Source: an uncultured Bifidobacteriaceae bacterium (GTDB taxonomy: Bacteria; Verrucomicrobiota; Verrucomicrobiia; Limisphaerales; UBA11358). From it: 64,000 nt of DNA. Numbering within the stretch: the first letter of the stretch is position 1; the number at the start of each line of letters is the position of its first letter. Location of the stretch: NCBI GenBank assembly GCA_964444085.1, contig CAYUGC010000001.1, positions 9,857 through 73,856 of the forward strand. Direction: 5' to 3'. The notes beneath the pieces are model-generated. The model ran no database searches. It was given only the letters and a program-made list of their open reading frames with translations, and had not been told where the DNA came from. Shown piece by piece: positions 3,701-50,495 of the stretch. A program made the translations under genes and the position numbers.

Positions 3701-3740
3701 TTTTCAGCCACAGATGAAACACGGGTTCTGAAAATAAAAA

Positions 3741-3767: not shown

Positions 3768-3793
3768 GGTTGCGCTTGAAGGTCAGCCGGCTT

Positions 3794-6962: not shown

Positions 6963-7007
6963 AGGTGGCCTATTGCATAACGACTGCCAATAAACTTCCG
7001 CCGGCGT

Positions 7008-9704: not shown

Positions 9705-10381
9705 ACCGCTGTCTCCGCCAATTTTCGCGCTTCGATTTGACGTGGTTCGGCCTCGTCGCGCTGCTCGCGTTTTTGCTGCCGGGAAATTCGTTCGCGGCAG
9801 ACACCAACAATTTCGCGATGGACAACACGGCGCTCCGCGTCGGCGCGATGGACGACAAATACCGGCTGTCCGTCGGCGACCAGTTGAGCTTTCAGGTCAT
9901 GGAGGACGAGGAAGACCCGAAGTTGCTCACCGTCACCGATTCCGGCGACTTGCAGGTGCCCAATATCGGACGTTTTCCGGCGGCGGGCAAGACGTGCAAG
10001 CAACTGGCCGCCGGCCTCAAGGTGGAGCTGGAAAAAACTTATTACTACCACGCCACGGTCATTGTGACGGTGGACGCCAAGCCGCGCAGCAGCGGCAAGA
10101 TATACATCGTCGGCGCCATTCACGGGCCAGGCTCGCAGGACATTGGAGGCGACGAGACGCTGACCGTGAGCCGCGCCGTCCTGCGCGCCGGCGGATTCAC
10201 GGAATTTGCCGACCAGAAAAATGTTCGCGTCACGCGCGCCCCGGCGGCGGGCGGCGCGGACGCGAAGAAGGTTTTCACCGTGAACGTCGCCCAGGTTTTT
10301 GAGAAGGGCAAAACCGAGAACGACCTGGAGTTGCTGCCCGGCGACTTGATTTTTGTGCCCGAACGGATGATCCGGTTTTGA
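9701..10381 (+). CDS. Polysaccharide export protein (Wza/OPX family, short form)
   Basis: Poly_export-like block YRLSVGDQLSFQV...GDLQVPNIGRFPAAGKTCKQL. SLBB-like block IYIVGAIHGPG...TVSRAVLRAGG. Ends LLPGDLIFVPE. Confidence 0.8.
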   Translation: MNRCLRQFSRFDLTWFGLVALLAFLLPGNSFAADTNNFAMDNTALRVGAMDDKYRLSVGDQLSFQVMEDEEDPKLLTVTDSGDLQVPNIGRFPAAGKTCKQLAAGLKVELEKTYYYHATVIVTVDAKPRSSGKIYIVGAIHGPGSQDIGGDETLTVSRAVLRAGGFTEFADQKNVRVTRAPAAGGADAKKVFTVNVAQVFEKGKTENDLELLPGDLIFVPERMIRF

Positions 10382-10386
10382 ACCGC

Positions 10387-12546
10387 ATGAAAGATTTGAT
10401 CCCCATTTCGCCTTCGGATTCGGGCCTGCAACTGCTGGAGCCGATGCGGGCGGGCGGCCAGGAACCGGCCGCGCCCAAGTTCCGCATCCAGAAACTGTGG
10501 ATGTTTCTGCGCCAATACTGGTGGATTCCGGTGGCCGCGCTGACATTGAGTTTGAGCGTGGCCATGGTGATTTTTTTCCGCACGCCGCCGGTGTTTTTTT
10601 CCGTCGGCAGCCTGTGGGAGACGGAGAAATTGCGGTTGCCCGACGGCGCGGCGTTCGCCGAGGATCGGGACCATTACCTCGGCACGCAGAACGATGTGCT
10701 CCGCAGCAAAATCCTCCGCGACCTCACGTTGACCCGGCTGCGGGCGACGGATACCAACAGCATCATCCTCGACGAGAACGGCGACCCGCTGGCGGTCGAG
10801 GTCGAGGTGGATTCCGCCCCCAAAAGCTCGGTCTATCTCGTGCAGGCCTCGAGCGCCAACCCGGCGTTCACGCCTCGCTATCTCAACGCGCTGATGGAGC
10901 AGTATCTGGAATATCGCAAAAATGTCCGCAGCCGCGTTTCGTCCGGCACGCTCGCCTCGATCTCCGAGCAGGTGCAGCGACTCGAACGCGACATGAAGCA
11001 GGGCCAGGAGGCGCTCAACGAATACGAGCGCAGCAACAACTTCACGATGATGGCGGAAGAAAGCGCGCAGGAGGTCGCCTATCTGACGAAGCTGAAAACC
11101 GAGCTGTCCGACTACCAGTTACAATACAAGCTGCTCGCCGCGAAGGAACTTGAGGACAACTCCGGCGACGCCAGCCGGGCGAACTCCAAGGACACCATTT
11201 TTGACACGTTGAACAATAACAGTTCCGCCCGCAATGCCGGCGGCGACCGGGCGAACGCGGACAAGGAAATCAAGCTGCTCAAGCTGGAACGCGCGCGGCT
11301 CGCCAAAAACCTGCGCCCCACCCATCCCAAAATGGTCAAGCTGGACCAGGACATCAACCGTGCCGAGCGGCTCGTCGAGGTTTATCACCGCCAAAGCCAG
11401 GACCAGATCGCCGCCGCGCGCGAGGCGCTCCAGATCAAAATTGACAGCCTCGACCAGGCCGTCAAGGACTGGGAAAACAAAATCGCCGGCGTCAACGAGC
11501 GCATTGCCGTCGCCGACGGTCTTAAGCAAAACGTCCTGCGGAATCAAGGCCTTTACGACCGCCTGACCGCGCTGCTGCAAAACGTGGACATCAGCCGCAA
11601 CATTGATCAGGAAACGCTGGCCATCCTCGAACCCGCCTCGCCAGCAAGGCGTTCCTATTCGCAGGCCAAAACGATGCTGACGCAGGCCTTCATCGTTGGG
11701 CTCGGCCTTGGTCTGGGTATCGTCTTTCTCATCACCTTGCGCGACGACCGGTTCAATTCCATGAGCGAGGTCACCGAGCGTTTCGGCGACACCGTTGTCG
11801 GCCAGGTGCCGGAAATGCCGGAGCTGGCGCAGCCCGGCCCGCTCGTCCTGCTGCACGACAACGACGACCGGCATATGTTTGCCGAGTCGTATCGCAATCT
11901 CCGCTCCGCGCTGCTTTACCTCACCGTGGACGGCAAGCGACCGCGCGTGCTGCTCGTCACCAGCGCGGTGCCGAACGAGGGCAAGTCCACCATCGCCACC
12001 AACCTCACCCGCGCGATGGCGCTCGGCGGCTCGAAGGTGCTGCTGATTGACGGCGACCTGCGCAAGGGCCACATTCACGACCGGCTCGCGGTGCCATCCA
12101 AGCCTGGCCTGCACGAACTGCTCCGCCGGCAGGCGGAGCTGGAAGCCGTCATCCAAAAAACCGACCTGCCAAATCTTTTCTTCATCGCGCGCGGCAACGT
12201 CTGCCGCAATCCCGGCGATTTGTTTTTACAGCCGCTGTTCGATGAACTGCTCGCGCAGCTTCGTGAGCAATACGATTACATCGTGCTGGATTGCAGCCCG
12301 GTGTTCGCGGCGGACGATTCCTCCACGCTCGCGCCGAAGGTGGACGGCACGCTGTTTGTCGTGCGCAACCAGTTCACGCACGCCCGCGCCGTGCGCGAGG
12401 CGCTGGAGCTTTTGTTCCAACGGCAGGCGCGCGTGCTCGGCCTGATTTTGAACCGCGCGGACTCGACCGCCAGCAATTATTACTCCTACAAATACGCGGA
12501 GTATTACGCGGTCAATACCGAGGCGGCGGACGATAAAAAATCTTGA
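10387..12546 (+). CDS. Polysaccharide co-polymerase / tyrosine autokinase (Wzc, GumC/EpsG-like, PCP-2a)
   Basis: Two TM segments flank a long coiled-coil periplasmic region. Walker A VTSAVPNEGKSTIATNL. Walker B-like YIVLDCSP. C-terminal tyrosine cluster SNYYSYKYAEYY. Confidence 0.85.
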   Translation: MKDLIPISPSDSGLQLLEPMRAGGQEPAAPKFRIQKLWMFLRQYWWIPVAALTLSLSVAMVIFFRTPPVFFSVGSLWETEKLRLPDGAAFAEDRDHYLGTQNDVLRSKILRDLTLTRLRATDTNSIILDENGDPLAVEVEVDSAPKSSVYLVQASSANPAFTPRYLNALMEQYLEYRKNVRSRVSSGTLASISEQVQRLERDMKQGQEALNEYERSNNFTMMAEESAQEVAYLTKLKTELSDYQLQYKLLAAKELEDNSGDASRANSKDTIFDTLNNNSSARNAGGDRANADKEIKLLKLERARLAKNLRPTHPKMVKLDQDINRAERLVEVYHRQSQDQIAAAREALQIKIDSLDQAVKDWENKIAGVNERIAVADGLKQNVLRNQGLYDRLTALLQNVDISRNIDQETLAILEPASPARRSYSQAKTMLTQAFIVGLGLGLGIVFLITLRDDRFNSMSEVTERFGDTVVGQVPEMPELAQPGPLVLLHDNDDRHMFAESYRNLRSALLYLTVDGKRPRVLLVTSAVPNEGKSTIATNLTRAMALGGSKVLLIDGDLRKGHIHDRLAVPSKPGLHELLRRQAELEAVIQKTDLPNLFFIARGNVCRNPGDLFLQPLFDELLAQLREQYDYIVLDCSPVFAADDSSTLAPKVDGTLFVVRNQFTHARAVREALELLFQRQARVLGLILNRADSTASNYYSYKYAEYYAVNTEAADDKKS

Positions 12547-12741
12547 GGCCAATAGGGCTTCAAACTCCGGGCAACCGGCGATGGGCGAACCAAGCCGTTG
12601 CCCGGCTTTCGGGAGACCAGGCGGTAATTCTCCCGGACGCAGATGAAAAAACCAGATAACCGGCGTGTAGATTCCCGGCGCAAAATCGCGCTGCGAATTG
12701 ACCGGGACGAAGTCTGCCCGCAAATATTTTTGACCTGAACC

Positions 12742-14511
12742 ATGTCCATGCTGTTTTCATTTTTCCGGCTGCTCAAGCGCTGCTACCGCATGGCGCTGCC
12801 GTATGGCCGCGCGAAAATGCTCGGCGTGCTGGGATTGATTTTGTTCAACGGCGTGCTGCAGCTCGTCGGCGTCACGTCCGTCTTTCCGTTCTTCGCGCTC
12901 GCCGCCGACCCGGAACGCCTGCAAAAATCCGCGCTCGGCAGCCGGATCTTGCACCAACTCCCGCCGCTCACGACCAATCAACTGCTGGTCTGGGCCGGCG
13001 GCTTCGCCATCGCGATGCTCGTCATTGCCAGCATCGGCAGTCTGGCCAGCGAAGTCCTGCGCATCCGCTACGCCTACGGCTTCTGTCACTGGTTGCGCGG
13101 GCGTTTGTTTGAATCTTACGCCAGCCAGCCGTATTCATTTTTTCTCCGCCGCAACACCGCCGAGCTAAACCAGCGGATGTTTGACGTGCAGATGTTCATC
13201 CAGAACGTCCTGCTGCCCGTCGGCGAAATCCTGACCCGGCTGGTCATCGTCGTGCTGCTCATCGCCGCCGTCTTCGTGGTGCAGCCGTGGGTGGCGCTCG
13301 GCTCCGCCGTCATCTTCGGTGGATTTTATCTGCTCGTCTTTGTCTGGTTGCGTCCCCGCACCCGGGCCGTTTCCAACGGCCTGCAATTTCACACGGTGGG
13401 ATTTTGGAAAAACACCAGCCAGTTTTTGCAGGGCATCAAGACCGTGCTCGTCCATGGCAAAAGCCGGCACTTCATGGACCGTGCGCTGGAACACTCCGCG
13501 CGCATCGGCGATTTCTCCAGCAAGATCCCGATCTACAGCAACGGCCCGCGCTACCTCATCGAGCCCATTGCGTTCGGCGGATTGATGGCCGTCGTCGTGT
13601 TTCTCGCGCTGCGCGGACGTTCGTTCTCCGACATTTTGCCCAACCTCACCGTGATGGCCTTCGCCGGCTACCGATTGCTGCCCGCGCTGCAACTGCTCTA
13701 CGCCCAGCTCGTCACCATCGCGGCGAACAACTACACGTTGAAGCAGCTTGAAGAGGAAATTCTCGAAATCGAAAAACTGGTTCCGACCACCACTGCCGCT
13801 GCATCCGCCGCGCCATTGAAGTTCCAAAACAAATTGCGGCTGGAGCAAATTGCCTTCCAATACGCCGGCGCGACGGCTCCGGTGCTGAAAGATTTTTCCA
13901 TCGAGATCGCGAAGAACGAATCCGTCGGCATCGCCGGCTCGTCCGGCTCCGGCAAATCCACGCTGGTGGATTTGATTCTCGGATTGCACCAGCCACAGTC
14001 CGGCGCAATCCGCGTGGACGACGAGCCGCTTACCGTCAAAAATTACGACGCGTGGCGGCGCATGATCGGCTACGTGCCGCAGGACATTTACCTGCTCGAC
14101 GACACCATCGAGGCGAACATCGCCTTCGGCCTTGACCCGAAAAACGTGGACGCCGCCGCGTTGCGCGAGGCCGCGCTCGGCGCTCAGATTTTGGAATTTA
14201 TTGAAAAGGAATTGCCACAGGGAATGCACACCACCGTCGGCGAACGCGGCGTGCGTTTGTCCGGCGGCCAACGCCAGCGCATCGGTCTGGCGCGCGCGCT
14301 GTATCATCGCCCGCAGGTTTTGATTTTGGACGAGGCCACCAGCGCGCTCGACCATCAGACTGAACTCGCCGTGATGGAAACCATTCATCGTCTGCAAGGC
14401 ACGCTGACCATCATCACCATCGCGCACCGATTGAGCACGCTGGAACGCTGCGACCGCGTCATCCGCCTGCAAAAAGATTCGCCGGCAGCGGGCGAGGCCC
14501 CGCCACAATGA
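12742..14511 (+). CDS. ABC exporter, fused permease + ATPase (MsbA/PglK-type)
   Basis: N-terminal six-TM region. Walker A GSSGSGKST, signature LSGGQRQR, Walker B LILDEATSALD. Confidence 0.85.
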   Translation: MSMLFSFFRLLKRCYRMALPYGRAKMLGVLGLILFNGVLQLVGVTSVFPFFALAADPERLQKSALGSRILHQLPPLTTNQLLVWAGGFAIAMLVIASIGSLASEVLRIRYAYGFCHWLRGRLFESYASQPYSFFLRRNTAELNQRMFDVQMFIQNVLLPVGEILTRLVIVVLLIAAVFVVQPWVALGSAVIFGGFYLLVFVWLRPRTRAVSNGLQFHTVGFWKNTSQFLQGIKTVLVHGKSRHFMDRALEHSARIGDFSSKIPIYSNGPRYLIEPIAFGGLMAVVVFLALRGRSFSDILPNLTVMAFAGYRLLPALQLLYAQLVTIAANNYTLKQLEEEILEIEKLVPTTTAAASAAPLKFQNKLRLEQIAFQYAGATAPVLKDFSIEIAKNESVGIAGSSGSGKSTLVDLILGLHQPQSGAIRVDDEPLTVKNYDAWRRMIGYVPQDIYLLDDTIEANIAFGLDPKNVDAAALREAALGAQILEFIEKELPQGMHTTVGERGVRLSGGQRQRIGLARALYHRPQVLILDEATSALDHQTELAVMETIHRLQGTLTIITIAHRLSTLERCDRVIRLQKDSPAAGEAPPQ

Positions 14512-15698
14512 CCCGGAAGCCAAGAATTTTTTATTGCGCGTGGACGCCGCCGAGCACGGCGAGCGGTGCGTGCCTCGCCATGCGCCGGCATTTCATCGAG
14601 CGCAAAGATTTCGACACGTTTGTTTTCACCAACGAGCGTTTTGCCGACGACACGGTTCCGTTTCACATCGTCAACCGTCCCCGCTGGCTGGAGCGCGTGA
14701 TGCGCACGCGGTTGCGCCGGCTGGTCCGGCAAATGGAAATGTTGCTCATGGGCTGGTGGCTGCTGCCGCGTGCGCTCAAGCTGGCGCGCGAGTTCAAGCC
14801 GGACGTGGTTTTCACCATTCCCGACAATGATTTTAGCTGGTGCGCGTGGCTGCTCGCGCGGCGGCTGAAAATTCCGCTGGTGACAAATTTTCAGGACTGG
14901 TGGCCGCAGAATCAATTTTGGGCGGACACCGAACGGCCTTTCGGCGCGACGCGGCGCTGGCTGGAACGGCGCTTCCGCCGGATGTATCGCGACAGCGCGC
15001 TGGCGTTTTGCACCAGCGACGGCATGAAGGAATTTCTCGGCTCGCATCCCAATGCCGTGACCTTGCTTCCCTGTCCCGGCCAGCCGCCGGCCAATGTGCC
15101 GCCGGCGAAAGTTCCGGACGGTCGCCGGCCAACGCGGATTCTGTATGCCGGCACCGTTTCGGGCGATTACGGCCGGATGGTTTTGGCGCTCGCCAAACGG
15201 CTGGCGGATCAGCCGCAGTTTGAATTCTTGGTCTATGGCCCGCCGCCCGACTGGTCGCCGGAAGATGTTCAATGGGCGCGTGACCGGAAAATTTTCCACG
15301 GCTTCATTCCGCACGACCAGCTCCGCGCCGTGCTAGCCTCGGCGGATGCTTTTCTCGCCGTGATGAGCTTTGAAAAAAGTTTGGAGATCATGTCGCGCGT
15401 CAGCTTCACGACCAAATTTCTCGAATATACACAATACGGCCGGCCCGTCGTTTTTTGGGGGCCGGAATACTGCCAACCGGTGCGCGTGGCACGGGCGACC
15501 GGCTCCGGCCTCGCCGTCACCACGCCCGAAAGCGGCGCGGTCGTTGAAGGTTTGAACCGCCTGCGCGACGAGGCGGAATATCAACGTCTGGTGGCCGGGG
15601 CGAACCAGGTCGCCGCCACGATTTTCTCGCCGGAAACGATTCACGGAATTTTCCGCGACCGCATCCACGCGGTGCTCGCCGGCCGCCCCGGAATTTAG
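14508..15698 (+). CDS. Putative GT-B fold glycosyltransferase
   Basis: ATGA overlap with the ABC gene. The C-terminal half resembles the GT4 Rossmann domain (ILYAGTVSGDYG...GFIPHDQLRAVLASADAFL...KFLEY). No strong catalytic motif was recognised. Confidence 0.5.
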   Translation: MTRKPRIFYCAWTPPSTASGACLAMRRHFIERKDFDTFVFTNERFADDTVPFHIVNRPRWLERVMRTRLRRLVRQMEMLLMGWWLLPRALKLAREFKPDVVFTIPDNDFSWCAWLLARRLKIPLVTNFQDWWPQNQFWADTERPFGATRRWLERRFRRMYRDSALAFCTSDGMKEFLGSHPNAVTLLPCPGQPPANVPPAKVPDGRRPTRILYAGTVSGDYGRMVLALAKRLADQPQFEFLVYGPPPDWSPEDVQWARDRKIFHGFIPHDQLRAVLASADAFLAVMSFEKSLEIMSRVSFTTKFLEYTQYGRPVVFWGPEYCQPVRVARATGSGLAVTTPESGAVVEGLNRLRDEAEYQRLVAGANQVAATIFSPETIHGIFRDRIHAVLAGRPGI

Positions 15699-15704
15699 CC
15701 CACG

Positions 15705-16583
15705 ATGAAGCCTCCGCTATTTTTGCGTTTCGACGGTTTGGGCGACGCCCTGCTCGTCAACGCGGTCATGCATCAATACGCGCGGGAAAATGGCGGCAAG
15801 GTTTTTGTCGCCACGCGTTATCCTGAACTGTTCGCCGGCACGCCGCAGGTGGTTACGCTGCCGACCACCTCGCAGCGGCTGGCGCATCAGCTCGGCAAAT
15901 TAATGCGGCTGGTCGGGCTGGTGGACTCACTGGTGTATTTGAGTTACCAGCCCGGTGGGCCGGACGCCAAAATGCAGCCGCTGCCGGGCCACATTCTTTC
16001 TATTCTCTCCGCCAAGGCCGGCGTGAAAACTGCGCCGGTGCGCCCGGTGTTGTTTCTCCGCCCGGAAGAATTGCGCGCCGCCGTCCTGCCGGCCGGTGAC
16101 AAACCGTGGATTGCCATGCAATCCACCGGTATCACCACGATGACGGACAACAAAAACTGGTTTCTGGACCGGTTTCAGGCCGTCGCCCGGCAACTGCGCC
16201 AACAATTTCGCATCGCGCAATTCGGCCTGGCGTCCGACCCGCTCATCGAAAACGATCTGGATTTGCGCGACCGCATCAGCCCGCGCCGGGCGGCGGCCAC
16301 GCTGGCTTCGTGCCGCGCGCTGATTTGTCAGGAAGGCTATTTGATGCACGCGGCCACGGCGGTCGGCACGCCGGCGGTGGTTATCTTCGGCGGGTTTATT
16401 TCGCCCGCCGAAAGCGGTTACGACGTGAACGAAAATCTTTTCACCCAGCTCGACTGCGCGCCGTGCTGGCTGCGCACGCCATGTCCCTACGACAAGGAAT
16501 GCATGAAGCAAATTTCCGTCGCGAACGTGCTGTCGGCGCTGGAAAAATTATTGGCGCGGCATCCCGTCCAAAATCGCGCTTGA
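15705..16583 (+). CDS. Glycosyltransferase family 9 (heptosyltransferase-like)
   Basis: N-terminal [12 protein letters not shown]-terminal [20 protein letters not shown] and CAPCW...[13 protein letters not shown], typical of GT9. Confidence 0.7.
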
Positions 16584-17821
16584 AAATTGCCCACTACAAC
16601 ACCCACGCCGACGGCGGTTCGGCAGTTTTGATGCTGCGGTTGCACGCCGCGCTGCGCGAACTTGGCCATGACAGCCGCGTTCGTTATCGGAAAGGAAGCC
16701 TCGCTCTGCCGGAAGCCGAGCGGCGGGAATTTTGCCGGAGCTGGCTCGACCTCCAGCGCGAACGCGTGCGGCAGCGTTTTGAAACCTGGGCGATGCGCCC
16801 CGATGCGCCGTCGTTTTTCGGACGTTACCGCTCGCCGCAGCCCACGCTGCCGGCGGCGGACGATGCGGCGGCGGACATCGTGCATCTGCACTGGGTCAGC
16901 CAGTGGCTCGACCTGCCGAGTTTTCTGGCCGCGATTCCGAAACACATTCCGATTGTCTGGACGATCCACGACATGAGCGCGCTGGCCGGCGGCTGCTTCA
17001 CCGATTTCGGCTGCGACCAAATGGAAAAGACCTGCGCGGTTTGTCCGGTGTTCAAGCCGCCGTTCAACCGCTGGCTCGCCGCGCGGGAATGGCACCGCCG
17101 TTCCCGCGCACTCGCCGGGCGGAAGATTTTCGCCGTCGGCAACAGCGTCTTCACCACCGGCCTCATCAAAAAATCCGCGCTGTTTGCCGACGTGAAAAAA
17201 ATCGCGACCATCCATCCGGCGGTGAAAACCGGCGAGTTCATCCGCCACGAAAAAATGGCCGCCCGCCGACAACTCGGCCTCGCCCCGAACCGTTTCGTCT
17301 TGGGTTTTGGGGCCACGTCGTTAACCGACATTAACAAAGGTTTCAAACGGTTTTGGGACGTTGCGGAAAAAGTCGGCCAAAAACTTGGCGCGGTGGACGC
17401 GCTGGTTTTCGGCGACGGCCTGCCGGCGGTCAGCCGCGCGCGGGTGAATGTGCGCGGCCTTGGCCGGCTGTCGTCGCCGGCGCAGCAAAGCCTCGCGTAT
17501 TCGGCGATGGACGTTTTCATCGTCGCCTCGCGCATGGAAACTTTCGGGCTGGTCGCCACCGAGGCGCAGGCGTGCGGCACGCCGGTGTGGGCGTTCGATG
17601 TTGGCGGTCTGCGCGACGCGGTGCAGGCCGGCGTGACCGGAAATCTGGTGCCGTTCGGCAACACGGAACGGATGGCCGAGGAAATATGCGCGCAAGCCCG
17701 CTCCGGAAATCTGCCGGCGATGGGCGACCGCGCGGCGGCGTGGGTGCGGGAAAATTTCCCGGCGGAAAAAATGGCGGCGCAATATCTGGAACTTTACCAC
17801 GAGGCAATCGCCGAAAAATGA
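16580..17821 (+). CDS. Glycosyltransferase family 4
   Basis: TTG start overlaps the upstream stop (TTGA). Begins [15 protein letters not shown]-terminal EtFG-type motif [20 protein letters not shown]. The long N-terminal extension in the ORF track (from 16106) overlaps the GT9 gene in another frame and was rejected. Confidence 0.75.
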
Positions 17822-18795
17822 GCGCGCCGATGAACATCGTTTTCTGCGCCGACCGCCGCGTGCTGCCCGGCCTGCACGTCGCGATGTATTCGCTGCTGGA
17901 CCGCATCGGCGCGGCGGTGGCGGAAACGCGCTTTTATCTTTTCAGCGACGATTTCGCCGACGGCGATTTGGAATTATTGAGGCAAACACTTTCCGCCACC
18001 GGCAAACCATTCACGCTGGAGCTGTGCCGCGTGGATGCGAAATTGTTCGCCAATTTTCCGCCGTTGAACGGCAGCCATGCCACCTACTACCGGCTGATGG
18101 CGGTTCAGGTGTTGCCGGTGGAGCGGTTTCTTTATGTGGACGCCGACACACTGTGCGACGTGGACGTGGGTGAGCTGAAAGCGTTTGATTTTTGCGGCGC
18201 GCCCGCCGCGCTCGTGCCGGAAGCGCCGCTGGCCGGCGCGGTGGACCGGTTTGTCGCCGAACAGCTCGGCAACAGCGCGACGGAGCCTTACTTCAATTGC
18301 GGCGTGATTCTGGTCAACGTGCCGGAATGGCGGCGGCAGCGCGTGACCGAGCGAGCGATGGAATACATCGCCAAATACCGGCCGCCGTTCCACGACCAGT
18401 CGGCGGTGAATGCCGTTCTGCACGGCCAAATCGCAAGGCTGCCCGAAAAATTCAACTGCATCGCCAATATGCGGAAACATTGGCCGGCTCTGCGTCCCAC
18501 CGGCGTGCCGCTCGACCGGCTGGTGCATTTTCTGGATTATCCGAAGCCGTGGGATTGGCTCGGCGAATTCGTTAATCCGCATCACCGGCTCTGGCGCGCG
18601 GCGCTGGAAAAGACGGCGCTAAAAAATTTCCGCTCGTGGCACGCCACGCCGGCGCGGAAATTTCCGCAGACGTGCAAGGCCTGGGCCGGCTATAAGAAAT
18701 CTTTTAAGGACCGCTGGCTGTTTGCCGGCTATTCACGCGGCTGGCTGAAGCAGGTCAAAGGCTTGCCGGATCAAAACGTGGAGGCGGTGACGTGA
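17818..18795 (+). CDS. Glycosyltransferase family 8
   Basis: [21 protein letters not shown]. DxD in [34 protein letters not shown] overlap with the upstream gene. Confidence 0.8.
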
Positions 18796-19727
18796 GCATT
18801 CAAGCCCCCTTCGGTTTCGTTACCGGTTGCCATGCCGGCGACAAGTTCATGGTTCAGGCCACATTGGCGAGTATCAAATATTTTTGTCCGGGCGTGCCGA
18901 TCTGCCTCGTGGTGGATGGAATCTTTGATGTAGAAGATTTAGTGCGTGAATACGGCGTGATCGTCCTGCGCGTGCCCGACCTGCCTTCGGCGGAAATGCG
19001 CCGGCTCATCGGTAGTAACTACCGCGCCAAGCTTGCGGCGATGTGGAAGGGGCCGTTTGAATTTTTTGTGTGGCTGGACTCGGACGCGATCGTGTGGGGC
19101 GACTTCACCGCGCAAATCCGCCGCGATTTGGATTTTCAAATTTTGTGGAGCGAGATTTCCGTCCCGGCCAGCGCCACGGAAATTCCCGCGTGGCTGCCGC
19201 ACTTTTATTTCGACCCGGAAAAATTGCGACCGTTCGACGCCGGCTTCGACTGGCGCGGGCGGGCTTATTTTTGCACCGGCACCTTTGCCTGTCGGCGCAA
19301 CGCCATTCCGTTTTCCGAGTGGGCGAAGCTCGAAGCGTGGGGCCAGCAGATGCCGGGGCTTTTCGCATGGGGCGAAATGGGCATGCTGAACTACGCCGTC
19401 CATTCGCTGACGCAGCGCGGCCAGATCAAATCCGGTATGGCTGATTTGCAGCACATCTGGGGGCACCATGGTACGGCGGAACTGGCGCGCGACTGCGCCG
19501 GCGCCGGCTGGCGTTTCCCCAAAAATATTTCCCGCCCGCGAGTCGCGCACTTTTGCGGACGCAAGCCGTTCCTGTTTGATCGCGGCGCCTATTCGCAACC
19601 GTTCACCATCGCCCGGCTGGCGCACCACCGCCGGCACCACGGTGAATTCGTCGCGTGGCTGGCCATCCTCAACGAAGACCGCCGGGTGCTGTCCGGCAAG
19701 CTGAAGAAACGGATATTCGGAAAATAA
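18792..19727 (+). CDS. Putative nucleotide-diphospho-sugar transferase (GT-A-like)
   Basis: GTGA overlap with the upstream gene. DxD-like FVWLDSDAIVWGDF. No closer family recognised. Confidence 0.4.
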   Translation: MSIQAPFGFVTGCHAGDKFMVQATLASIKYFCPGVPICLVVDGIFDVEDLVREYGVIVLRVPDLPSAEMRRLIGSNYRAKLAAMWKGPFEFFVWLDSDAIVWGDFTAQIRRDLDFQILWSEISVPASATEIPAWLPHFYFDPEKLRPFDAGFDWRGRAYFCTGTFACRRNAIPFSEWAKLEAWGQQMPGLFAWGEMGMLNYAVHSLTQRGQIKSGMADLQHIWGHHGTAELARDCAGAGWRFPKNISRPRVAHFCGRKPFLFDRGAYSQPFTIARLAHHRRHHGEFVAWLAILNEDRRVLSGKLKKRIFGK

Positions 19728-19737
19728 TTTTTGTTTC

Positions 19738-20604
19738 ATGGGCGAAAACAATTTCCAACCAATCGCGCCGCTGCTGGCCTTTTTGATTCCCGTCGCCCCG
19801 CGCCGCGCGAAGTTCAAATGGGAGCTCGCCTGCCGGCTGCTGCACCAGACCCTCAAGTCCATCCAAAACTCGGCGGACGGAAATTTCTGCGTGGTGGTGG
19901 TCGGCAACGAGCCGCCGGATTTCGATGTGGCGCTGGACTCGCGATTTTGTTTCGTGTCCGTGCCGCCGCCACCGGCACATCCGCCGCCGGCCATCGCGGG
20001 CGTGCTGGACAAGCTGGCGAAAATCACCGCCGCTTGGAATCACACGAAGGCGAAGTGGAACCCGCGTTATGTGATGAAGCTGGACGCGGACGATCTCATT
20101 AGCTCCAAGCTGGTGGGATGGCTCGCCCAAAACAGCGGCGCGCCCGGCTACCTCATTTCGCAGGGCTGGCTGTGGCGGATGAACCTGCGCCCGGTTCTCC
20201 AGCGCACGGAGACTCTGGACCGCATCTGCGGTTCCTGCCTCATTTCCCGCAGCGACCTGGTGGAAAAAACGGGGCCGTTCCGCACGGAAACCGAGGGCGT
20301 GGTGTTGAGCGAGGCGAACGCAAACTTTGCCAAGGCCGACCAGTATTCGCTCATTCCCGGCTCGGCCACCAGCACGCTGCTGGCGAACGATAGCCATCAG
20401 CGTTACGCGGCGCAGTTCGCCTATCTCGGCCACCAGCTGACCGCCGTGCCGTTTCCCGCCGTGGTTTACCGGATGGGCAACGCAGACAGCATCAGCGGCG
20501 CGAAGTGGCACATCCACTCGTTGCGGATGCTGCTCGGCGCCGTGCGCCGGATGCGGCCCATCACGCCCGGCGTGCGCCGGGAATTCATGCTGGAAGCCCG
20601 ATAA
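19738..20604 (+). CDS. Putative GT-A fold glycosyltransferase (GT2-like)
   Basis: LAFLIPVAPR...FCVVVVGNEPP. DxD in YVMKLDADDLI. Confidence 0.5.
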   Translation: MGENNFQPIAPLLAFLIPVAPRRAKFKWELACRLLHQTLKSIQNSADGNFCVVVVGNEPPDFDVALDSRFCFVSVPPPPAHPPPAIAGVLDKLAKITAAWNHTKAKWNPRYVMKLDADDLISSKLVGWLAQNSGAPGYLISQGWLWRMNLRPVLQRTETLDRICGSCLISRSDLVEKTGPFRTETEGVVLSEANANFAKADQYSLIPGSATSTLLANDSHQRYAAQFAYLGHQLTAVPFPAVVYRMGNADSISGAKWHIHSLRMLLGAVRRMRPITPGVRREFMLEAR

Positions 20605-24375: not shown

Positions 24376-25617
24376 ATGACTTCCCCCTCAATCAAATTGC
24401 CTTCGTGGATTTGCAGCCAGATTGGCGCCCGCGAGCACTTCGCCATCCCGCGCGCATTGCATCTAAACGGCCAGCTCGCCGCGCTCTGCACGGATTTTTG
24501 GGCCGGCCCGGTGACGCGCAAACTGGCTGCCGGCAAGCTGCGCCCGCTCGCCGCGCGGTTTCATCCCGATTTGACGCGGCAATCAGGACTTGTCCATTCA
24601 TGGAACTTGCGTTCGCTCGGCTGGGAATTTCTCCTGCGCCGGAAATTTGCCGGCGAGCCGTATCTTGGTTTTATCGAGGTCGGGAAAAGATTTTCCACTA
24701 GCGTGCGCGAATATTTGAAACGCCGGACGGACTTGAATGGCCGTTCCCTTTTCTTTGCCTACGACACCGGCGCATTGGAATCGCTCGCGTGGTGCCGCGC
24801 ACAAAAAATCAAATGCGTCCTGAACCAGATGGATCCGAATCGCGTGGAAGTGGACCTGGTGCGCGCGGAGGAAACAAACTGGCCCGGCTGGTCCCTGCGC
24901 CGCCTGCAGGTGCCGGAGGAGTATTTCGCCCGGCGCGAACAGGAGTGGTCACTGGCCGACCGCATCGTCGTGAACTCGGAATTCTCCCGGCAGGCTTTGC
25001 TCCAGCAGGGCGTGCCCGCCGAAAAGCTGGTCGTCATCCCGCTGTGCTTTGAAACCGGCGAAGCCAATTGTGAATCCGAAATCGTAAATCATAAATCAGA
25101 CGCTCCGCTGCGCGTGCTGTTTCTCGGCCAGGTGATTTTGCGCAAGGGCATCCAGTATCTGCTCGCCGCCGCGCGGCAACTGGAAAAGGAAAACATCCAT
25201 TTCGATGTCGTCGGGCCGGTTGGAATTTCGCAGGCGGCCATCTCATCCGCGTCCGGCAACGTAACGTTTCACGGCCGCACCAGCCGTGATCAGGCAGCGG
25301 ATTGGTATCGGCAGGCGGACGTGTTTGTCCTGCCGACACTCTCGGACGGCTTTGCTCTCACGCAACTGGAGGCGATGGCACACGGCCTGCCGGTCGTCGC
25401 CACGCCGAACTGCGGCGCGGTCGTCACCGACGGCGCGGACGGCTTCCTCGTCCCGCCGCGCGATGCGGATGCGCTGGCGCAAACTTTTAGGCGCTACCTC
25501 ACGCAGCCGGAACTGCTGCCGGCGCAGGCGGCAGCGGCGCGGGGAAAATCCCGCCAGTTCACGCTGAACCGGCTGGCGGAAAACCTGGCGCAACTGGAGG
25601 CTGATTTGCGGAAGTGA
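24376..25617 (+). CDS. Glycosyltransferase family 4, with a repeat-encoded linker insertion
   Basis: C-terminal domain LRVLFLGQVILRKG...VFVLPTLSDGFALTQLEAMAHGLPVV. The inter-domain linker ANCESEIVNHKSDA is encoded by a heptamer array at 25073-25100. Confidence 0.75.
   Translation: MTSPSIKLPSWICSQIGAREHFAIPRALHLNGQLAALCTDFWAGPVTRKLAAGKLRPLAARFHPDLTRQSGLVHSWNLRSLGWEFLLRRKFAGEPYLGFIEVGKRFSTSVREYLKRRTDLNGRSLFFAYDTGALESLAWCRAQKIKCVLNQMDPNRVEVDLVRAEETNWPGWSLRRLQVPEEYFARREQEWSLADRIVVNSEFSRQALLQQGVPAEKLVVIPLCFETGEANCESEIVNHKSDAPLRVLFLGQVILRKGIQYLLAAARQLEKENIHFDVVGPVGISQAAISSASGNVTFHGRTSRDQAADWYRQADVFVLPTLSDGFALTQLEAMAHGLPVVATPNCGAVVTDGADGFLVPPRDADALAQTFRRYLTQPELLPAQAAAARGKSRQFTLNRLAENLAQLEADLRK
25073..25100 (+). 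repeat. Intragenic AATC-phased heptamer array (4 units)
   Basis: aatccga aatcgta aatcata aatcaga, in frame inside the GT4 gene. Its units match the hairpin arms at 62114-62185. Confidence 0.7.
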
Positions 25618-28468: not shown

Positions 28469-29695
28469 ATGATCAAGTCCGCTCATCTCACGGCGTCGGT
28501 TTCGCGCAAGGCCGGCGGGCTGTTTGACGCGGTGCTGCGGTTGGCGCAGTCGGAGCAGCAGCTCGGCGCGACGGTGAAAGCCTTCGGCCTGCGCGACGAA
28601 AACACCGATGCGGATCTGCCGGCATGGGCACCGGCACCGGTGGCGGCATTTCCGCCTGGCTGGCCGAACGGCATCGGTCGCGCGCCCGGATTTCTTGCGG
28701 AGCTGGAGGCGTTCGCGCCGGACATCTGCCACACGCATGGCTTGTGGCTTTATCCCAGCGTCGCCGTCAATAATTACGGACGAAAAACCAAACGGCCTTG
28801 CGTCATCTCGCCACACGGGATGCTCGACCCGTGGGCGCTGAAAAATTCGCGCTGGAAAAAACAAATCGCGTGGTATTTATTTGAAGCGGCGCACCTGCGC
28901 GGCGCGCGCTGCCTCCGTGCGCTTTGCCAGTCAGAAGCTGATTCCATCCGCCAGCTCGGACTCAAAAACGAGATCGTGGTCATCCCGAACGGGATTGATT
29001 TGCCGTCCGGCGTGACGCCCGCCGCGCCACCATGGAATAATTTTGTCGCGCCCGGGAAAAAAGTATTGCTCTTCCTGAGCCGGATTCATCCGAAGAAAGG
29101 GTTGGTCAATTTGCTGAAAGCGTGGCCGGCAAATCAGCAATCGGCAATCGGCAATCAGCAATCTGGTGATTGGGTTCTCGCCATCGCCGGCTGGGAGCAA
29201 GGTGGACACGAAGCGGAGTTGAAACAGCTTTGTAACGACCGGGAAATTCCCTTCGCCGACATTCGCGAGCCATCCTCCATTCTCCATTCTCCATCCTCCG
29301 TGCTGTTTCTCGGCCCGCAGTTCAACGCCAACAAAGTCGCGTGTTATCATCATTGCAACGCGTTCGTGTTGCCGTCGTTCAGCGAAGGTTTGCCAATGGT
29401 CGTGCTCGAGGCGTGGGCGAATGCCAAGCCGGTGCTGATGACGCCGGAATGTAATTTGCCGGAAGGTTTTCCAGCCGGCGCGGCGCTGAAAATCGAACCA
29501 AACGAAGCGGGCATCGCCGCCGGCCTGCAAAATCTTTTTGCCATGAGCGGCGCAGATCGCGCCGCGATGGGCAACCGTGCGCGGATGCTGGTGGAAGCTC
29601 ACTTCACTTGGACGCAAGTTGGCAGCCAGATGCACGCTGTCCACGAATGGATTTTGGGCGGCGGCGCCAGGCCGAATTGCGTCTTGGACGCTTGA
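28469..29695 (+). CDS. Glycosyltransferase family 4, with two repeat-encoded insertions
   Basis: LLFLSRIHPKKG. AFVLPSFSEGLPMVVLEAWANAKPVLMT. Low-complexity peptides ANQQSAIGNQQSG and EPSSILHSPSS are encoded by heptamer arrays. Confidence 0.75.
   Translation: MIKSAHLTASVSRKAGGLFDAVLRLAQSEQQLGATVKAFGLRDENTDADLPAWAPAPVAAFPPGWPNGIGRAPGFLAELEAFAPDICHTHGLWLYPSVAVNNYGRKTKRPCVISPHGMLDPWALKNSRWKKQIAWYLFEAAHLRGARCLRALCQSEADSIRQLGLKNEIVVIPNGIDLPSGVTPAAPPWNNFVAPGKKVLLFLSRIHPKKGLVNLLKAWPANQQSAIGNQQSGDWVLAIAGWEQGGHEAELKQLCNDREIPFADIREPSSILHSPSSVLFLGPQFNANKVACYHHCNAFVLPSFSEGLPMVVLEAWANAKPVLMTPECNLPEGFPAGAALKIEPNEAGIAAGLQNLFAMSGADRAAMGNRARMLVEAHFTWTQVGSQMHAVHEWILGGGARPNCVLDA
29132..29166 (+). repeat. Intragenic heptamer array aatcagc aatcggc aatcggc aatcagc aatctgg
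   Basis: Read directly. ABBA arrangement of two unit variants. The reverse complement of the array at 58544-58575 uses the same aatcggc unit. Confidence 0.7.
29270..29299 (+). repeat. Intragenic heptamer array ccatcct ccattct ccattct ccatcct
   Basis: Read directly. ABBA arrangement, 104 nt downstream of the previous array in the same gene. Confidence 0.7.
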
Positions 29696-38020: not shown

Positions 38021-39880
38021 ATGCACGAACCATTAAAAAATGGCAGCGTCCCGCTTTTGGCCAGCCAGCCGGCTTCCGCCAACGCTTTTCCGCCGGGAAA
38101 GTGCCTCCATGAATGGTTCGAGGTTCAGTCGGCCTGCACTCCCGACGCGACCGCGCTGACTTTTGAGCAACAGCATCTCACTTACCGCCAACTCAACGAA
38201 CGCGCCAACCAGCTCGCCCATCACCTGCGCCAGCTCGGCGTAAAACCAGAAACGCTCGTCGGCCTCTTCGTCGAACGCTCGCTGGATTTGCTCGTCGGCC
38301 TGCTCGGTATCCTCAAGGCCGGCGGCGCCTACGTGCCGATGGATCCGCAATACCCGCAGGCGCGGCTCGCGTTCATGATGCAGGACGCCGGCGCGGCGGT
38401 CATCGTCACCCAAGAAAATCTGGCGGCGCAGCATCCGATGCCGAATGCAAAATTGGTCTGCCTCGACACCGACTGGCCGACGATTGCCAGCGAGCCAAAA
38501 ACCAATCCGGCCAATTTCACCAAGCCGGAAAACCTAGCGTATGTCATTTACACGTCCGGCTCCACCGGCACGCCCAAAGGCTCGTTGATTTCGCACCACA
38601 ACGTCGTGCGGCTGTTTCAGGCCACGGAAAATTGGTTTCACTTCAATCAAGGCGATGTCTGGACGCTGTTTCATTCCAGCGCGTTTGATTTTTCCGTCTG
38701 GGAAATCTGGGGTGCGCTGCTTTACGGCGGCCGGCTGGTGGTCGTGCCGTTTCACACCAGCCGCTCGCCAGAAATTTTTCGTCGGCTTTTATGCGACGAA
38801 AAAGTGACGGTACTCAACCAGACGCCGTCGGCCTTCCGCCAGTTACTGCACGCCGATGAACTCGCGCCGGCCGGCGAAAAACTTTCCCTTCGTTATGTTA
38901 TCTTCGGTGGCGAGGCGCTGGATTTCAAAAGCCTGAAACCGTGGTTCAACCGCCACGGCGACGAGCAGCCGCAACTCGTGAACATGTATGGCATCACCGA
39001 AACCACGGTGCACGTCACCTATCGCCCCATCCGCGCGGCGGACACGGACAGCAGCAGCGTCATCGGCGTGCCGATTCCCGACCTGCAAATTTATCTGCTC
39101 GATGAAAATCGCCAGCCCGTGCCCGACGGCACGCCGGGCGAAATTTGCGTCGGCGGCACCGGTGTCGGGCGCGGTTATTTCAACCGGCCGGACCTCACGG
39201 CAAAAAAATTTATTTCAGATCCCTTTTCAGCAAATTCGGACAACCTGCTTTATTGTTCCGGCGATTTGGGTCGCTATCTTCCGAACGGCGATTTGGAATA
39301 TCTCGGACGCATTGACCAGCAGGTGAAGGTGCGGGGCTTTCGGATTGAACTGGGGGAGATTGAGACGGTGTTGAGCCAGCATCCAAGCCTGCGCGATAGC
39401 GTGGTCATCGCCCGGGATGACCAGCTTGGCGAGAAACAACTGGTGGCTTACGTCGTGCCCAAGGACAAGGCCCCGACGGTGATGGAATTGCGCGCGCACC
39501 TGATGCAGCGGTTGCCCGACTACATGGTGCCCGCCGCGTTCGTCACGCTGGATGTGTTGCCTCTAACAGAGCACGGCAAGTTGAACCGGCAGGCATTGAT
39601 TCAACAAGAAGAGGCGGTTGCATTAGCCACGGGTGTGACGTATCAGGCACCGCGCACGGAGTTGGAGTGGAAGCTGGTGGAAATTTGGCAAGGTGCGTTG
39701 CAGCGGGAAGGCATTGGCATCCGCGACGACTTCTTCGCACTTGGCGGACATTCCCTGCTGGTTTTCACCGTGATATCGCGGATCGCTGGAACGCTTAAAT
39801 TACAGTTGCCGGTCAGCATGCTATTCGAACACCGGACCATCGAGACGCTGGCCCGGCAAATCGAAGCCGACCGTTCAACC
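38021..39880 (+). other. NRPS module 1 (A-T); hand-read specificity code DFWNIGMVHK (Thr)
   Basis: Code residues read from FDFSVW, LNQTPS, VIFGGE, NMYGITETTVH and K520, by alignment to GrsA-PheA positions 235-517. No condensation domain precedes it. Boundaries approximate. Confidence 0.7.
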
Positions 39881-42800
39881 TTGGATAAAGCCCCGCCCCT
39901 GCCGCGAGCGGACCGGACGCAGCCGCTGCCCATGTCGGTGGGACAACAGCAACTGTGGTTGGTGCAACAAACCTTGCCGGATCCCGCCACCTACAACGAG
40001 CCAGTGGTCTATCATCTGCTTGGGTCGGTGGCGGTCGCTTGTCTCAAAAAATCTTTGGAAGCGATTTGGGAACGCCATGAAGTCCTGCGCACCGCCTTGG
40101 TTCAAGAAGGCGAATCCTTGGTGCAAAAAATCTTCCCGGCTAAAATGCTGGACCTGCCGTGGGAGGAGCTGGATCTGCGCGCAGTGCCGGCCAGCGAACG
40201 GCAGGTGGCAATGGAGCGGCACCTGATGGAAGTGAGCCGCCGGCCCTTTGATCTGGCGCAAGCGCCGTTATGGCGGGTGTTGTGGATGACGCTGGCGAAC
40301 CATGAGCATCAACTGGCTGTCATTTTCCATCACGCCATTGTTGACGAGTGGTCTGAACGTTTGTTTTTCGACGAGTGGCGCCGCTTGTATGCGGCGGAGG
40401 CGGACCCCGCGAAAGCGGGGCTGGCGGAGTTGCCGGTGCAATACGCCGATTATGCCGCATGGCAACGCTCACGGTTGACCGATGAATTTCTCCGGCGCGA
40501 ACGGGCTTACTGGTTGCAGCAACTCCAAAACATGCCGCCGCCGCTGAAATTGCCCGGCGACCAGTCGGCAGGCGGACGACGCAGCGGCCGGGGCGGAACC
40601 TATCGCTTTGAACTGTCTGGCCCCGTGGCTGAAAATCTGCGGAGCTGGGCGCAACAAGAGGGTGTGACCAACTTTGCCTGGATGCTGGCGGCGTTCCAGG
40701 CCTGGCTATATCGCTTTACGGGACAGGCGGACTTGGTGGTGGGATCGCCGGTGACTAACCGGGAGCAGCCCGAAACACAAAGTCTGTTCGGCTATTTTCT
40801 GAACACGCTGCCGCTGCGAATCCGGGTTGAAAAACAGGAGAGCCTTCGGGCATTTGCGCGCCGGGTCGGAAAAATGGTGCAGGCGGGGCTGGAGCACAAG
40901 GCCCTGCCCTTTGAGCAGATGGTGGCGATGGTGGCCCCGGAACCAGCCGGCGTTCGCGGGCCGATCTATCAAGTGATGTTCGTGCTGCTGGAACAAGGGC
41001 TGCCGCCGTGGAAACCGGCAGGAATCGAAGCCCGCCAGATTGACGCCGACACGCGCACGAGCAAGAACGACCTGACTTTGTTTGTTGAGGCGGAAGGGGC
41101 GGTTTGGAAATGTGCTTTGGAATATGCCGCCGAAGTGTTCACCGAGGAAGCGGCGGCCCGCACGGCAATTTACTTGCAGGAGTGGTTTGCTTCGCTCGCT
41201 GCCAATCCGGATGGAATGATCGAATGCCTGAACCTGTTGCCGGCGGCGGAACGACGCAAAATCCAAATGGAGTGGAATGCAACGGCGAGGGGGTATCCGC
41301 CGGACAAATGTGTGCATGAATTGTTTGAGGAACAGGTCGAGCGGACGCCGGAAGCGATCGCGCTGGAGTTCGAAGGACAGTCATTGACGTATCGGGAACT
41401 TAACCAGCACGCCAATCAACTGTCCCGGCATCTGAAAAAACTGGGCGTGGGTCCCGAGACGCTGGTGGGACTGTGCGTGGAACGCTCACCGGCGATGGTC
41501 GTAGGCTTGTTGGGCATTCTCAAGGCGGGCGGCGCGTATGTGCCGTTGGATCCAGATTATCCGAAAGCGCGGCTGGATTGGTTGCTGAAAAACGCGGCCA
41601 TAAAATGGTTGATAACCCAAACTCATCTCGCCAGCCGCTTCTCGCCGGCACAAAATCAAAACCTGATTTGCTTGGACCAGGCATCGTTCAATGAACCTAA
41701 AGACAATCTGAAGGTTCATGGCTCACCCAAAAACCTGGCCTACGTCCTCTTCACTTCCGGTTCCACGGGGTTGCCTAAGGGGGTTGCCATGGAACACGGT
41801 TCACTCGTCAACCTGCTGTGCTGGCAGGTGCAGCAAGCGCCCGCCCCGCAACGCACCCTCCAGTTCGCGTCAGTGTGTTTTGACGTGTCCTTTCAAGAAA
41901 TATTCTCGACTTTGATCAACGGCGGAACCTTGGTTTTGGTCAACCCGGCGGTGCGGTCAAATCCGGCGGAACTCTTTGAATTCATCCAAGCCCGGCGGCT
42001 GGAACGGCTTTTTTTACCGGTCGTCATGTTGCAGGAACTTGCGGAAGCCGCCCAGCAATCTTCCGGTGCCGCCGTCAACTTGAGGGACGTCATCACGGCC
42101 GGAGAACAACTGCGGATCACCCCGTCAATCCGCCGCTTTTTCGCGCGACACACAGCTTGTTTTTTGCACAATCACTACGGCCCGACCGAGTCCCATGTGG
42201 TGACCGCCCTGCCGCTGCCGAAAAATCCCAGTGATTGGCCCGAACTACCAGCGATTGGACGGCCGATTTTCAACACTACAATATATCTGCTGGACACCGA
42301 ACTTCAACCCGTGCCCATCGGGTTGGCCGGCGAGTTGTATATTGGCGGTGCCGGAGTGGCGCGAGGCTATCTGAATCGGCCAGACCTGACGGCGGAACGG
42401 TTCATCCCCGACCCCTTTTCGGCGAAGCCGGAAGCAAGGCTATACAAGACCGGGGATTTATGTCGTTACTTGCCTGACGGCAACATTGAATTTTTGGGGC
42501 GGATTGACCAACAGGTAAAAATCCGCGGGTTCCGCGTCGAACTGGGCGAAATCGAAGCGGTGCTGGGAACGCATCCGCAAGTGGCTGGTTGCGCGGTGGT
42601 GGCGCAGCAAAATGGCGGGGGAATTTTTTTGACTGCCTATGTGGTGACGCGCGCGGTCGCGCCGTTGACCGGGCCGGTATTGCGGGAGTGGTTGAGGGAA
42701 AAATTGCCGGATTACATGGTGCCGGCCCGGTTTGCAACCCTGCCCGCCCTGCCGCTCACGCCCAACGGAAAGCTTGACCGACAGGCATTGGGTCGGCTGG

Positions 42801-50493: not shown

Positions 50494-50495
50494 TA

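Follow-up and report, generated by a model that had tools for sequence, protein, structure and literature searches.

A decayed heptanucleotide array in the inter-domain linker of a GT4-type glycosyltransferase gene, and related 7-nt arrays in Verrucomicrobiota

This study deals with a short heptanucleotide array inside a glycosyltransferase gene (24376-25617, plus strand) on a stretch of 64,000 nucleotides (nt) of contig CAYUGC010000001.1. The whole stretch is called the window in the following, and coordinates given without a locus name refer to it. The array consists of five worn 7-nt units and lies in the linker between the two domains of the encoded GT4-type enzyme. With a probability of roughly two thirds it represents an in-frame heptanucleotide microsatellite, now decayed, which the linker tolerates; it would have arisen by slippage or template switching in a 7-nt register and would have been filtered by selection. 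Taken by itself such a worn array is ordinary, and it does not act as a switch. The evidence comes from the array and its orthologs, from an excess of 7-nt arrays in the window and in related loci, and from the comparison with a repeat-armed hairpin at 62.1 kb.

The array and the linker it occupies

The features of the gene needed here are the following.

24376 to 25617, plus strand: gene for a predicted GT-B fold, GT4-type glycosyltransferase of 413 amino acids (aa) (Pfam, AlphaFold, Foldseek)
25036 to 25107, plus strand: disordered inter-domain linker, residues 221-244 (coil and low confidence in the AlphaFold model, Pfam domain limits)
25066 to 25100, plus strand: decayed five-unit heptanucleotide array, AATTGTG AATCCGA AATCGTA AATCATA AATCAGA (register from the ortholog alignment)

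The original prediction, made from the sequence of the window, recognised four AATC-phased heptamers and the peptide ESEIVNHKS, and both were found as described. The units are aatccga (25073-79), aatcgta (25080-86), aatcata (25087-93) and aatcaga (25094-25100), and in the frame of the ATG at 24376 the codons 25072-25098 (gaa tcc gaa atc gta aat cat aaa tca) read E233-S241. The register set by the orthologs adds a fifth, more decayed unit (aattgtg, 25066-72), and the array as a whole encodes NCESEIVNHKS (N231-S241). Every unit is different, with adjacent units of 25073-25100 sharing 5/7, 6/7 and 6/7 positions. The array is composed of head-to-tail tandem 7-nt copies (at least three) and is retained by the filter of our array scan, at least four units with at least 75% identity, while Tandem Repeats Finder (TRF) reports a period-7 array at 25079-25098 with 2.9 copies, 92% matches and a score of 33. 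The unit length is not divisible by three, and all units lie within the open reading frame (ORF) 24376-25617.

The ATG at 24376 was taken as the gene start (the mechanical ORF begins at 24226), and the product has an exact 413-aa database match (P0001). Pfam assigns Glyco_trans_1_4 (PF13692; 1.8e-31, 109.8 bits, cut-off 27) and Glycos_transf_1 (PF00534; 1.6e-27, 96.6 bits, cut-off 26.4), and for the N-domain Glyco_transf_4 (PF13439; 32.5 bits, cut-off 28.5). An AlphaFold model built on 33 orthologs reached a predicted local distance difference test (pLDDT) of 84.9 and a predicted template modelling score of 0.85. When this model was compared with the PDB by Foldseek, 3fro was found first (E = 2e-16), followed by 6kih, 3c4q (MshA), 8dvz (PglA), 5d00 (BshA) and 2jjm (GT4); the top matches are glycogen synthase, sucrose-phosphate synthase, MshA, PglA and BshA. 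The acidic E/D-x7-E motif of the C-domain is represented by D324-GFALTQL-E332, with both acidic residues invariant in a 33-sequence alignment. The product is therefore predicted to be a GT4-type glycosyltransferase with a GT-B fold, made of two Rossmann-like domains and a linker. Its gene belongs to an exosortase (EpsH)-linked polysaccharide cluster together with several further glycosyltransferases. The nearest genome records are metagenome-assembled genomes (MAGs) of Limisphaerales (Verrucomicrobiota) from peat, with 88-89% protein identity for PLYV01.

The array had been predicted to sit exactly at the linker between the two Rossmann halves, and this is borne out by domain limits and structure. 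The Pfam matches of the N-domain stop at residue 224 and those of the C-domain begin at 241-246. In the model the last strand of the N-domain (218-220) and the first strand of the C-domain (245-250) enclose residues 221-244, which are coil without secondary structure and fall below a pLDDT of 50 over 229-238. The array thus falls into a coil of low pLDDT between the domains.

Orthologous DNA was available from 80 genome loci and 61 metagenome loci (individual loci are given below as L numbers). Among 120 aligned homologs nearly all have a peptide at the linker position, commonly with a periodicity of seven residues, for example NRKSEIGNRKS, NWKLEIGNWKS or NPKSEIRNPKS. In the class with linkers of 84 nt the arrays fill a 36-nt slot (25066-25101 in the window) in a single register, starting with AAT or AAC and ending with AAATC. 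Their consensus is (AATCGGA)x5, which reads NRKSEIGNRKS, and relatives of about 60-89% identity use the same slot and register. L088 has five perfect AATCGGA units, L081 and L084 have arrays of AATTGGA units, and the window array differs by one or two changes per unit. The ancestral form was probably close to (GGAAATC)x5; with its units passing through the three codon phases it would be translated as NRKSEIGNRKS.

Orthologous arrays differ by one and the same base change repeated in every unit, namely C versus T at unit position 4, by which RKSEIG becomes WKLEIG while the periodicity of the DNA is kept. Conservation of the peptide was therefore rejected as an explanation: since the peptide changes and the DNA periodicity persists, the process acts at the DNA level and not at the peptide level. 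A second rule concerns stop codons. The unit AATCGTA in codon phase 2 reads TCG TAA, so that a perfect GTAAATC array is unreadable in frame. In the window, L001 and L002 all three units in phase 1 or phase 3 have T at unit position 6, and both phase-2 units keep G. T at this position is barred from phase-2 units because it would give TAA, and therefore the units look imperfect. The imperfection is thus probably the product of homogenisation towards GTAAATC, checked by purifying selection against the stop codon. In the GT4 linker of L091 (about 3853-3864) a phase-2 AATCGTA within an (AATCGGA)n array does give an in-frame TAA, which marks a pseudogene or else an error of sequencing or assembly.

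The original prediction spoke of an insertion, and this part did not hold. Measured between two flanking motifs, the linker of the window has 84 nt; nearly all orthologs without the repeat have 72-93 nt. When a second, slightly different motif anchor is used, the linker of the window measures 78 nt, which equals the median of the non-periodic linkers, the median of the periodic ones being 102 (69-192). Relatives at 81-89% identity all keep 84 nt. The linker of the window is no longer than those without periodicity, therefore the window array adds no length and a net insertion was rejected. Many orthologs have no array in the GT4 linker, and the repeat-free ones have at this position a linker of the same length and of unrelated sequence; the check for a homologous peptide in orthologs from repeat-free genomes had a mixed outcome. 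The array of the window has overwritten a linker that was already there.

Longer linkers exist as well (105-198 nt), and these are composite arrays or inverted array pairs. In linkers of 105, 141 and 192 nt related lineages have the order of unit types in common and differ in copy number. Inverted pairs are formed by GGAGATG and later CCATCTT units in L007 and by GCnGAAA and then TTTCAGn in L016. Among 81 distinct GT4 linkers lag 7 is the top autocorrelation in 52; values of at least 0.5 are reached by lag 7 in 32 linkers and by any other lag in none or one.

A separate observation concerns L092 and L094, which share a tract of about 168 nt with 100% identity (3684-3851 and 3711-3878, respectively), their flanking 300 nt being only 83-86% identical. 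Since the tract spans the GT4 linker arrays and also adjacent non-repeat coding sequence, selection on the array as the cause of the identity was dropped. Recombination or a chimeric assembly is the simpler reading, local selection being another conceivable cause.

Period-7 arrays in the window and in related loci

The window contains seven period-7 arrays by the above filter, whereas 0.23 are expected per 64 kb from third-order Markov simulations, and none at periods 8 and 9. From this expectation the chance of one such array inside an 84-nt linker can be estimated as about 3e-4. TRF contributes two further, shorter arrays. If both hairpin arms are counted as a single locus there are eight array loci, six of them inside genes confirmed by Pfam. 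The arrays other than the GT4 array are listed here, the last two being the hairpin arms:

1458 to 1493, plus strand: AATTTCA/AATTTGA array covering both the stop codon of the preceding gene and the probable start of an S-adenosylmethionine (SAM) methyltransferase gene (TRF, array scan, Pfam)
1742 to 1763, plus strand: TTTGAAA-type array in the methyltransferase gene, residues about 95-102 (TRF, Pfam)
29128 to 29168, plus strand: GGCAATC-type array in a second GT4 gene (28469-29695), residues about 220-233 (array scan, Pfam)
29266 to 29306, plus strand: CCATTCT-type array in the second GT4 gene, residues about 266-279 (array scan)
58539 to 58579, plus strand: GATTGCC/GATCGCC array (GGCAATC on the opposite strand) in the variable portion of the inter-domain linker of Sua5/TsaC2 (array scan, Pfam, alignment with PDB 6f87)
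58678 to 58699, plus strand: decayed AAATTGG array in the Sua5_C domain, peptide QIGSWKLEV (TRF; the L146 ortholog has (GGAAATT)x4 there)
62115 to 62145, no strand assigned: left arm of the hairpin, GATTTAC-type heptamers (TRF, arm pairing)
62159 to 62189, no strand assigned: right arm of the hairpin, GTAAATC-type heptamers (arm pairing)

In the second GT4 and in Sua5 the corresponding loops of orthologs again contain arrays; their units are different, and the length of the proteins stays the same. At the first position of the second GT4, L007 has a TAAATCG array and L142 a GAAATCA/GAAGTCA array, and at the second position both have CCATCTC-type arrays. The Sua5 array stands immediately in front of the conserved SPGxxxxHYSP, in a part that can be aligned with the linker of PDB 6f87; each of four relatives has a different array there, and the proteins measure 334-336 aa. 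The array at 1458-1493 spans the upstream TGA and the only in-frame starts (TTG) of the methyltransferase, whose translation therefore probably starts inside the array.

A survey of the window and 80 species-representative loci (81 sources, 1.26 Mb; loci, not whole genomes) yielded 251 arrays at period 7 versus 19, 35, 43 and 5 at periods 5, 6, 8 and 9. Exact arrays of at least three units number 108 at period 7 and three each at periods 5, 6 and 8, some of the metagenome contigs being redundant. The density reaches 31 arrays in 21 kb (L007) and 24 in 10.8 kb (L047). Five Planctomycetota loci (L072, L075, L078-L080) have no period-7 array. In L062 (Verrucomicrobiota, 9453-20294) octamer arrays such as GCTGAAAY, ACGAGACA and CCGGTGRR outnumber heptamer arrays by 18 to 10, and the favoured period appears to be lineage-specific rather than universal. 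According to the gene calls of the database, 16 of the 21 arrays of L142 are wholly enclosed by genes; for four close relatives the figure is 10 of 13.

The exact arrays comprise 47 unit families, and most units are unable to form G-quadruplexes. Units are shared more often within genomes than between them, with identical units in 6.6% versus 1.4% and units with at most one mismatch in 18% versus 6% of comparisons. In L047 a composite element of more than 100 nt is present in three dispersed copies (1740-1900, 2860-3020 and 6820-6990) with shared upstream flanks. It is 7-periodic throughout and consists of a GTTGxxG arm, a CAACxxC arm and four GGAACTG units, which suggests duplication or mobility of whole composite arrays. 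In L145 (15173-15268) the gene for anthranilate phosphoribosyltransferase contains adjacent arrays of four GCCAATG and four GGAAATC units, the latter identical to the ancestral GT4 linker unit.

Some records in this sample have surprising titles, namely 'uncultured Bifidobacteriaceae' for L008, L009, L019 and L041 and 'Heliomicrobium' for L014 and L018, with orthologs 53-61% identical to the GT4 of the window. Several of these apparently mislabelled MAGs are rich in heptamer arrays, and their taxonomic labels look unreliable.

These data are best accounted for by a lineage-wide mutational process that would write direct arrays of 7-nt period together with inverted array pairs, i.e. hairpins. 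The process is most likely replication slippage combined with transient template switching in a 7-nt register. Its products would persist where the sequence is unconstrained, such as gene junctions and flexible protein loops. In the GT4 gene selection would preserve length and frame of the linker and purge GTA (unit positions 5-7) in codon phase 2, and the array would have no role beyond serving as linker. The array with its location and orthology, the excess of period 7, the stop-codon rule and the lack of variation in length or frame are direct results, whereas the mechanism and the neutrality of the array are what we infer from them.

Several points weigh against this explanation. Slippage by a single unit would shift the frame of these genes, Sua5 included. 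Therefore homogenisation at constant length needs steps of 21 nt or length-neutral templated conversion, and neither has been directly observed. The lack of array indels among near-identical strains (see below) means that the process must be slow or episodic. The three- to fivefold higher unit sharing within genomes and the L047 copies are not predicted by independent slippage and may indicate dispersal, ectopic conversion or selection acting at the sequence level. The sampled loci are biased towards polysaccharide clusters plus one two-component locus, and the neutrality of the linker peptide is an assumption.

Alternative explanations

The origin of the GT4 array from a mobile or recombining element has to be judged together with the hairpin at 62.1 kb. 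The arms of this hairpin are 31 nt long, 84% complementary and 13 nt apart, and the structure occupies an 84-nt spacer (62112-62195) between the stop codon of a kinase gene and the ATG of a regulator gene on the minus strand (gene calls for the kinase region were taken from L143). The minus-strand RNA has a folding energy of -31.2 kcal/mol (z = -2.2), with the 3' arm ending at a distance of 3 nt from the regulator ATG. A function of the hairpin as an intrinsic terminator was rejected, because 62112-62195 contains no terminator-like site and no U-run follows the stem. The original prediction had noted that the units of the GT4 array match the hairpin arms, and they do: the 12-mer AAATCGTAAATC occurs exactly at 25079-25090 (plus strand) and at 62128-62139 (minus strand). 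With at most one mismatch it has seven matches in the window, whereas 0.30 are expected and none of 100 shuffles reaches seven.

The 84-nt hairpin is present in the window and in L143. In relatives whose kinases are 84-89% identical the junction is empty, with an ATGA overlap in L145 (6577-6580) and a 2-nt spacer in L148 and L149 (L148 11242-11245). L146 and L147 have a different hairpin of 119 nt at this junction (L146 11222-11340), with arms of three 10-nt tandem units CACAGATGAA and their complement. It seems that two repeat-armed hairpins have arisen independently at this kinase-regulator junction. Judged from this distribution, the hairpin of the window is a true insertion, young and lineage-specific. 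The GT4 array, on the other hand, is orthologous in a deep clade and keeps one register down to about 60% protein identity. It is therefore older and cannot derive from the hairpin, as had been supposed. The shared unit may rather reflect a unit preference at the genome level, or conversion.

It is nevertheless conceivable that MITE- or REP-like copies (miniature inverted-repeat transposable elements and repetitive extragenic palindromes) or ectopic gene conversion were at work and that the GT4 gene took its GTAAATC units from hairpins of the 62.1-kb type, an origin which we regard as doubtful. REP/REPIN and MITE-type elements are short palindromic insertions, the former with a conserved REP sequence. 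Among the arrays described here only the hairpin at 62112-62195 resembles them, as a short palindromic insertion at an operon gene junction with an empty site in close relatives. Besides this true insertion and the other hairpin at the same junction, the common 12-mer, the preference for identical units within a genome, the dispersed copies in L047 and the spread of the G-to-T change to every permitted linker unit in the window, L001 and L002 would fit such an element. However, unlike in REP/REPIN and MITE elements, the hairpin arms are tandem heptamers without a conserved REP sequence, and neither a target-site duplication nor a conserved terminus was seen when filled and empty junctions were compared. 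There is no second copy of the hairpin in the 64-kb window, and a scan of window ORFs, which was not exhaustive, found no transposase domain and no RAYT-like gene (REP-associated tyrosine transposase). AAATCGTAAATC is limited to seven of 150 loci, each time in a GT4 array or in the window hairpin, and the many unit families speak against a single element. The orthology of the GT4 array, its single register and the lack of added length argue that it was not recently inserted. Of the proposed mobile or recombining family there thus remains a broad repeat family, with units shared preferentially within genomes, and the derivation from the hairpin falls away.

A somewhat more doubtful view is that many Verrucomicrobiota (Limisphaerales, Chthoniobacterales) possess a specific, possibly enzyme-driven repeat writer, which would overwrite unconstrained DNA such as protein linkers, surface loops and gene junctions with 7-nt (sometimes 8- or 10-nt) arrays and their inverted copies at constant length and would keep the arrays homogenised. 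If such a repeat-writing process exists, protein loops and intercistronic RNA hairpins would be continually remodelled, and the arrays would not be passive microsatellites but a genomic system under maintenance, in which each genome has its preferred units.

We consider it unlikely that the array is a selected nucleic-acid element, i.e. a set of tandem sites for a heptamer-reading protein or a series of translational pauses at domain boundaries which aid co-translational folding. The junction hairpin, with its 3' arm so close to the regulator ATG, would in this case control translation of the response regulator. The maintenance of DNA periodicity during peptide change points in this direction, as do the arrays at domain boundaries in both GT4 and Sua5, the restricted and partly genome-specific repertoire of units, and the comparison of L088 with L091, which are 94% identical in the array and 78-79% in its flanks. 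However, placement at domain boundaries is equally predicted by tolerance, units vary widely between orthologous sites, many orthologs do without an array, and close relatives lack the hairpin. The array of the window is itself decayed, and an RNA element at this position was rejected: the fold of 25030-25140 is no better than that of shuffled sequences (z = +0.42), and Rfam at gathering thresholds gave a tRNA as its single match in the entire window.

Gain or loss of one unit would shift the frame, and the original prediction had pointed to the logic of phase-variable glycosyltransferases. As a contingency locus the array would switch the enzyme by slipped-strand mispairing of plus or minus one 7-nt unit and so vary the surface polysaccharide. 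We think this very improbable. Contingency loci such as the tetranucleotides in the lipopolysaccharide genes of Haemophilus influenzae are long perfect tracts, with unit-number polymorphism between strains and frameshifted alleles. The GT4 array has in common with them a unit length indivisible by three and a place in the coding sequence of a glycosyltransferase for surface polysaccharide, but a long, perfect and polymorphic tract is absent. Lineages differ in the number of units in their long orthologous linkers, which means that copy number has changed in the course of evolution. However, no two units of the window array are identical, and the 84-nt linker is constant in the 81-89% identical relatives. 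We looked for frameshifted orthologs and for indels between near-identical strains and found none. All 90 orthologs with both flanking motifs are in frame; five strains with 99.5-99.9% identity show no gap across a composite array and 3-15 single-nucleotide polymorphisms (SNPs); and L097 differs from L008, which has 13 arrays in a 15-kb locus, by 29 SNPs and no gap over 7.4 kb. These comparisons rest on assemblies, i.e. on consensus sequence, and rare off-variants lie outside their reach. In addition, a like array sits in Sua5/TsaC2, which makes the universal t6A modification of tRNA and for which on/off switching makes little sense. Phase variation was therefore rejected.

Finally, a chance resemblance of four similar heptamers in an A+T-rich patch without common origin, which the shortness, the imperfection and the TRF score of only 33 might suggest, is practically refuted by the excess of arrays in the window and by orthologs whose arrays in this slot and register are clearer, with as many as five perfect units.

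Known heptamer repeats and other features of the window

Heptanucleotide long simple sequence repeats (SSRs) have been reported to be in excess in some bacteria (Mrazek et al. 2007, as cited in PMC4679880 and PMC4692102). The best comparison is offered by the heptameric SSRs of Xanthomonas (GGGAATC) and Nostoc (GGGGAYT), which are enriched in non-coding DNA and depleted in ORFs (Rehm et al. 2015, PMC4692102). Like our arrays they are short tandem arrays of 7-nt units, with about four units preferred, occasional inverted pairs able to form stem-loops and a proposed origin by slippage, and they occur genome-wide; the Xanthomonas unit differs by a single base from GGAAATC and from GGCAATC, two units found here. 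In contrast to these non-coding-biased SSRs most arrays described here are inside genes, dozens of unit families take the place of one dominant G-rich and quadruplex-forming unit, and the density locally exceeds one per kb.

TAACTGA direct repeats of marine Beggiatoaceae, cyanobacteria and some Bacteroidetes are present in 2-6 copies, often just upstream of start codons (MacGregor 2015, PMC4679880). They consist of a single favoured unit with forward stop codons and are essentially intergenic, and neither a population of in-frame coding arrays, as found here, nor unit turnover at orthologous sites is described for them (PMC4679880). The array at 1458-1493 and the hairpin before the regulator ATG are similarly placed, and both kinds of repeats are patchy across lineages.

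The short tandemly repeated repetitive (STRR) sequences of cyanobacteria comprise several unit families per genome, are lineage-restricted and mainly intergenic, and their function and origin are unexplained. The arrays described here differ from them by occupying protein linkers in frame, which is not known of STRR sequences. STRR heptanucleotide repeats are known in Calothrix PCC 7601 (cited in PMC4692102).

In a literature search we found no paper linking heptanucleotide repeats with Verrucomicrobia. As far as we could find, coding-tolerant heptamer arrays are thus unreported for this phylum, and they form a contrast to the described SSRs which avoid coding regions. They are read in all three codon phases as 7-residue periodic peptides. 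These arrays offer a natural system for two questions: why 7 nt is the favoured unit of long SSRs in bacteria, and how far the sequence of disordered linkers is written by mutational bias rather than selection. In practice, such arrays can mislead gene callers and homology searches and prompt unwarranted predictions of phase variation.

Two other regions of the window may be mentioned. The ORF at 38021-47032 encodes a non-ribosomal peptide synthetase of 3003 aa with three adenylation, two condensation and three carrier domains and a thioesterase; its end is overlapped by the following ORF for a 4'-phosphopantetheinyl transferase (46765-47778). The region 48000-54000 has a G+C content of 0.50-0.53 versus about 0.60 elsewhere, contains a YgjP-like metallopeptidase, a tRNA gene on the minus strand (52990-53061) and several ORFs that have no match in Pfam, and may represent a genomic island.

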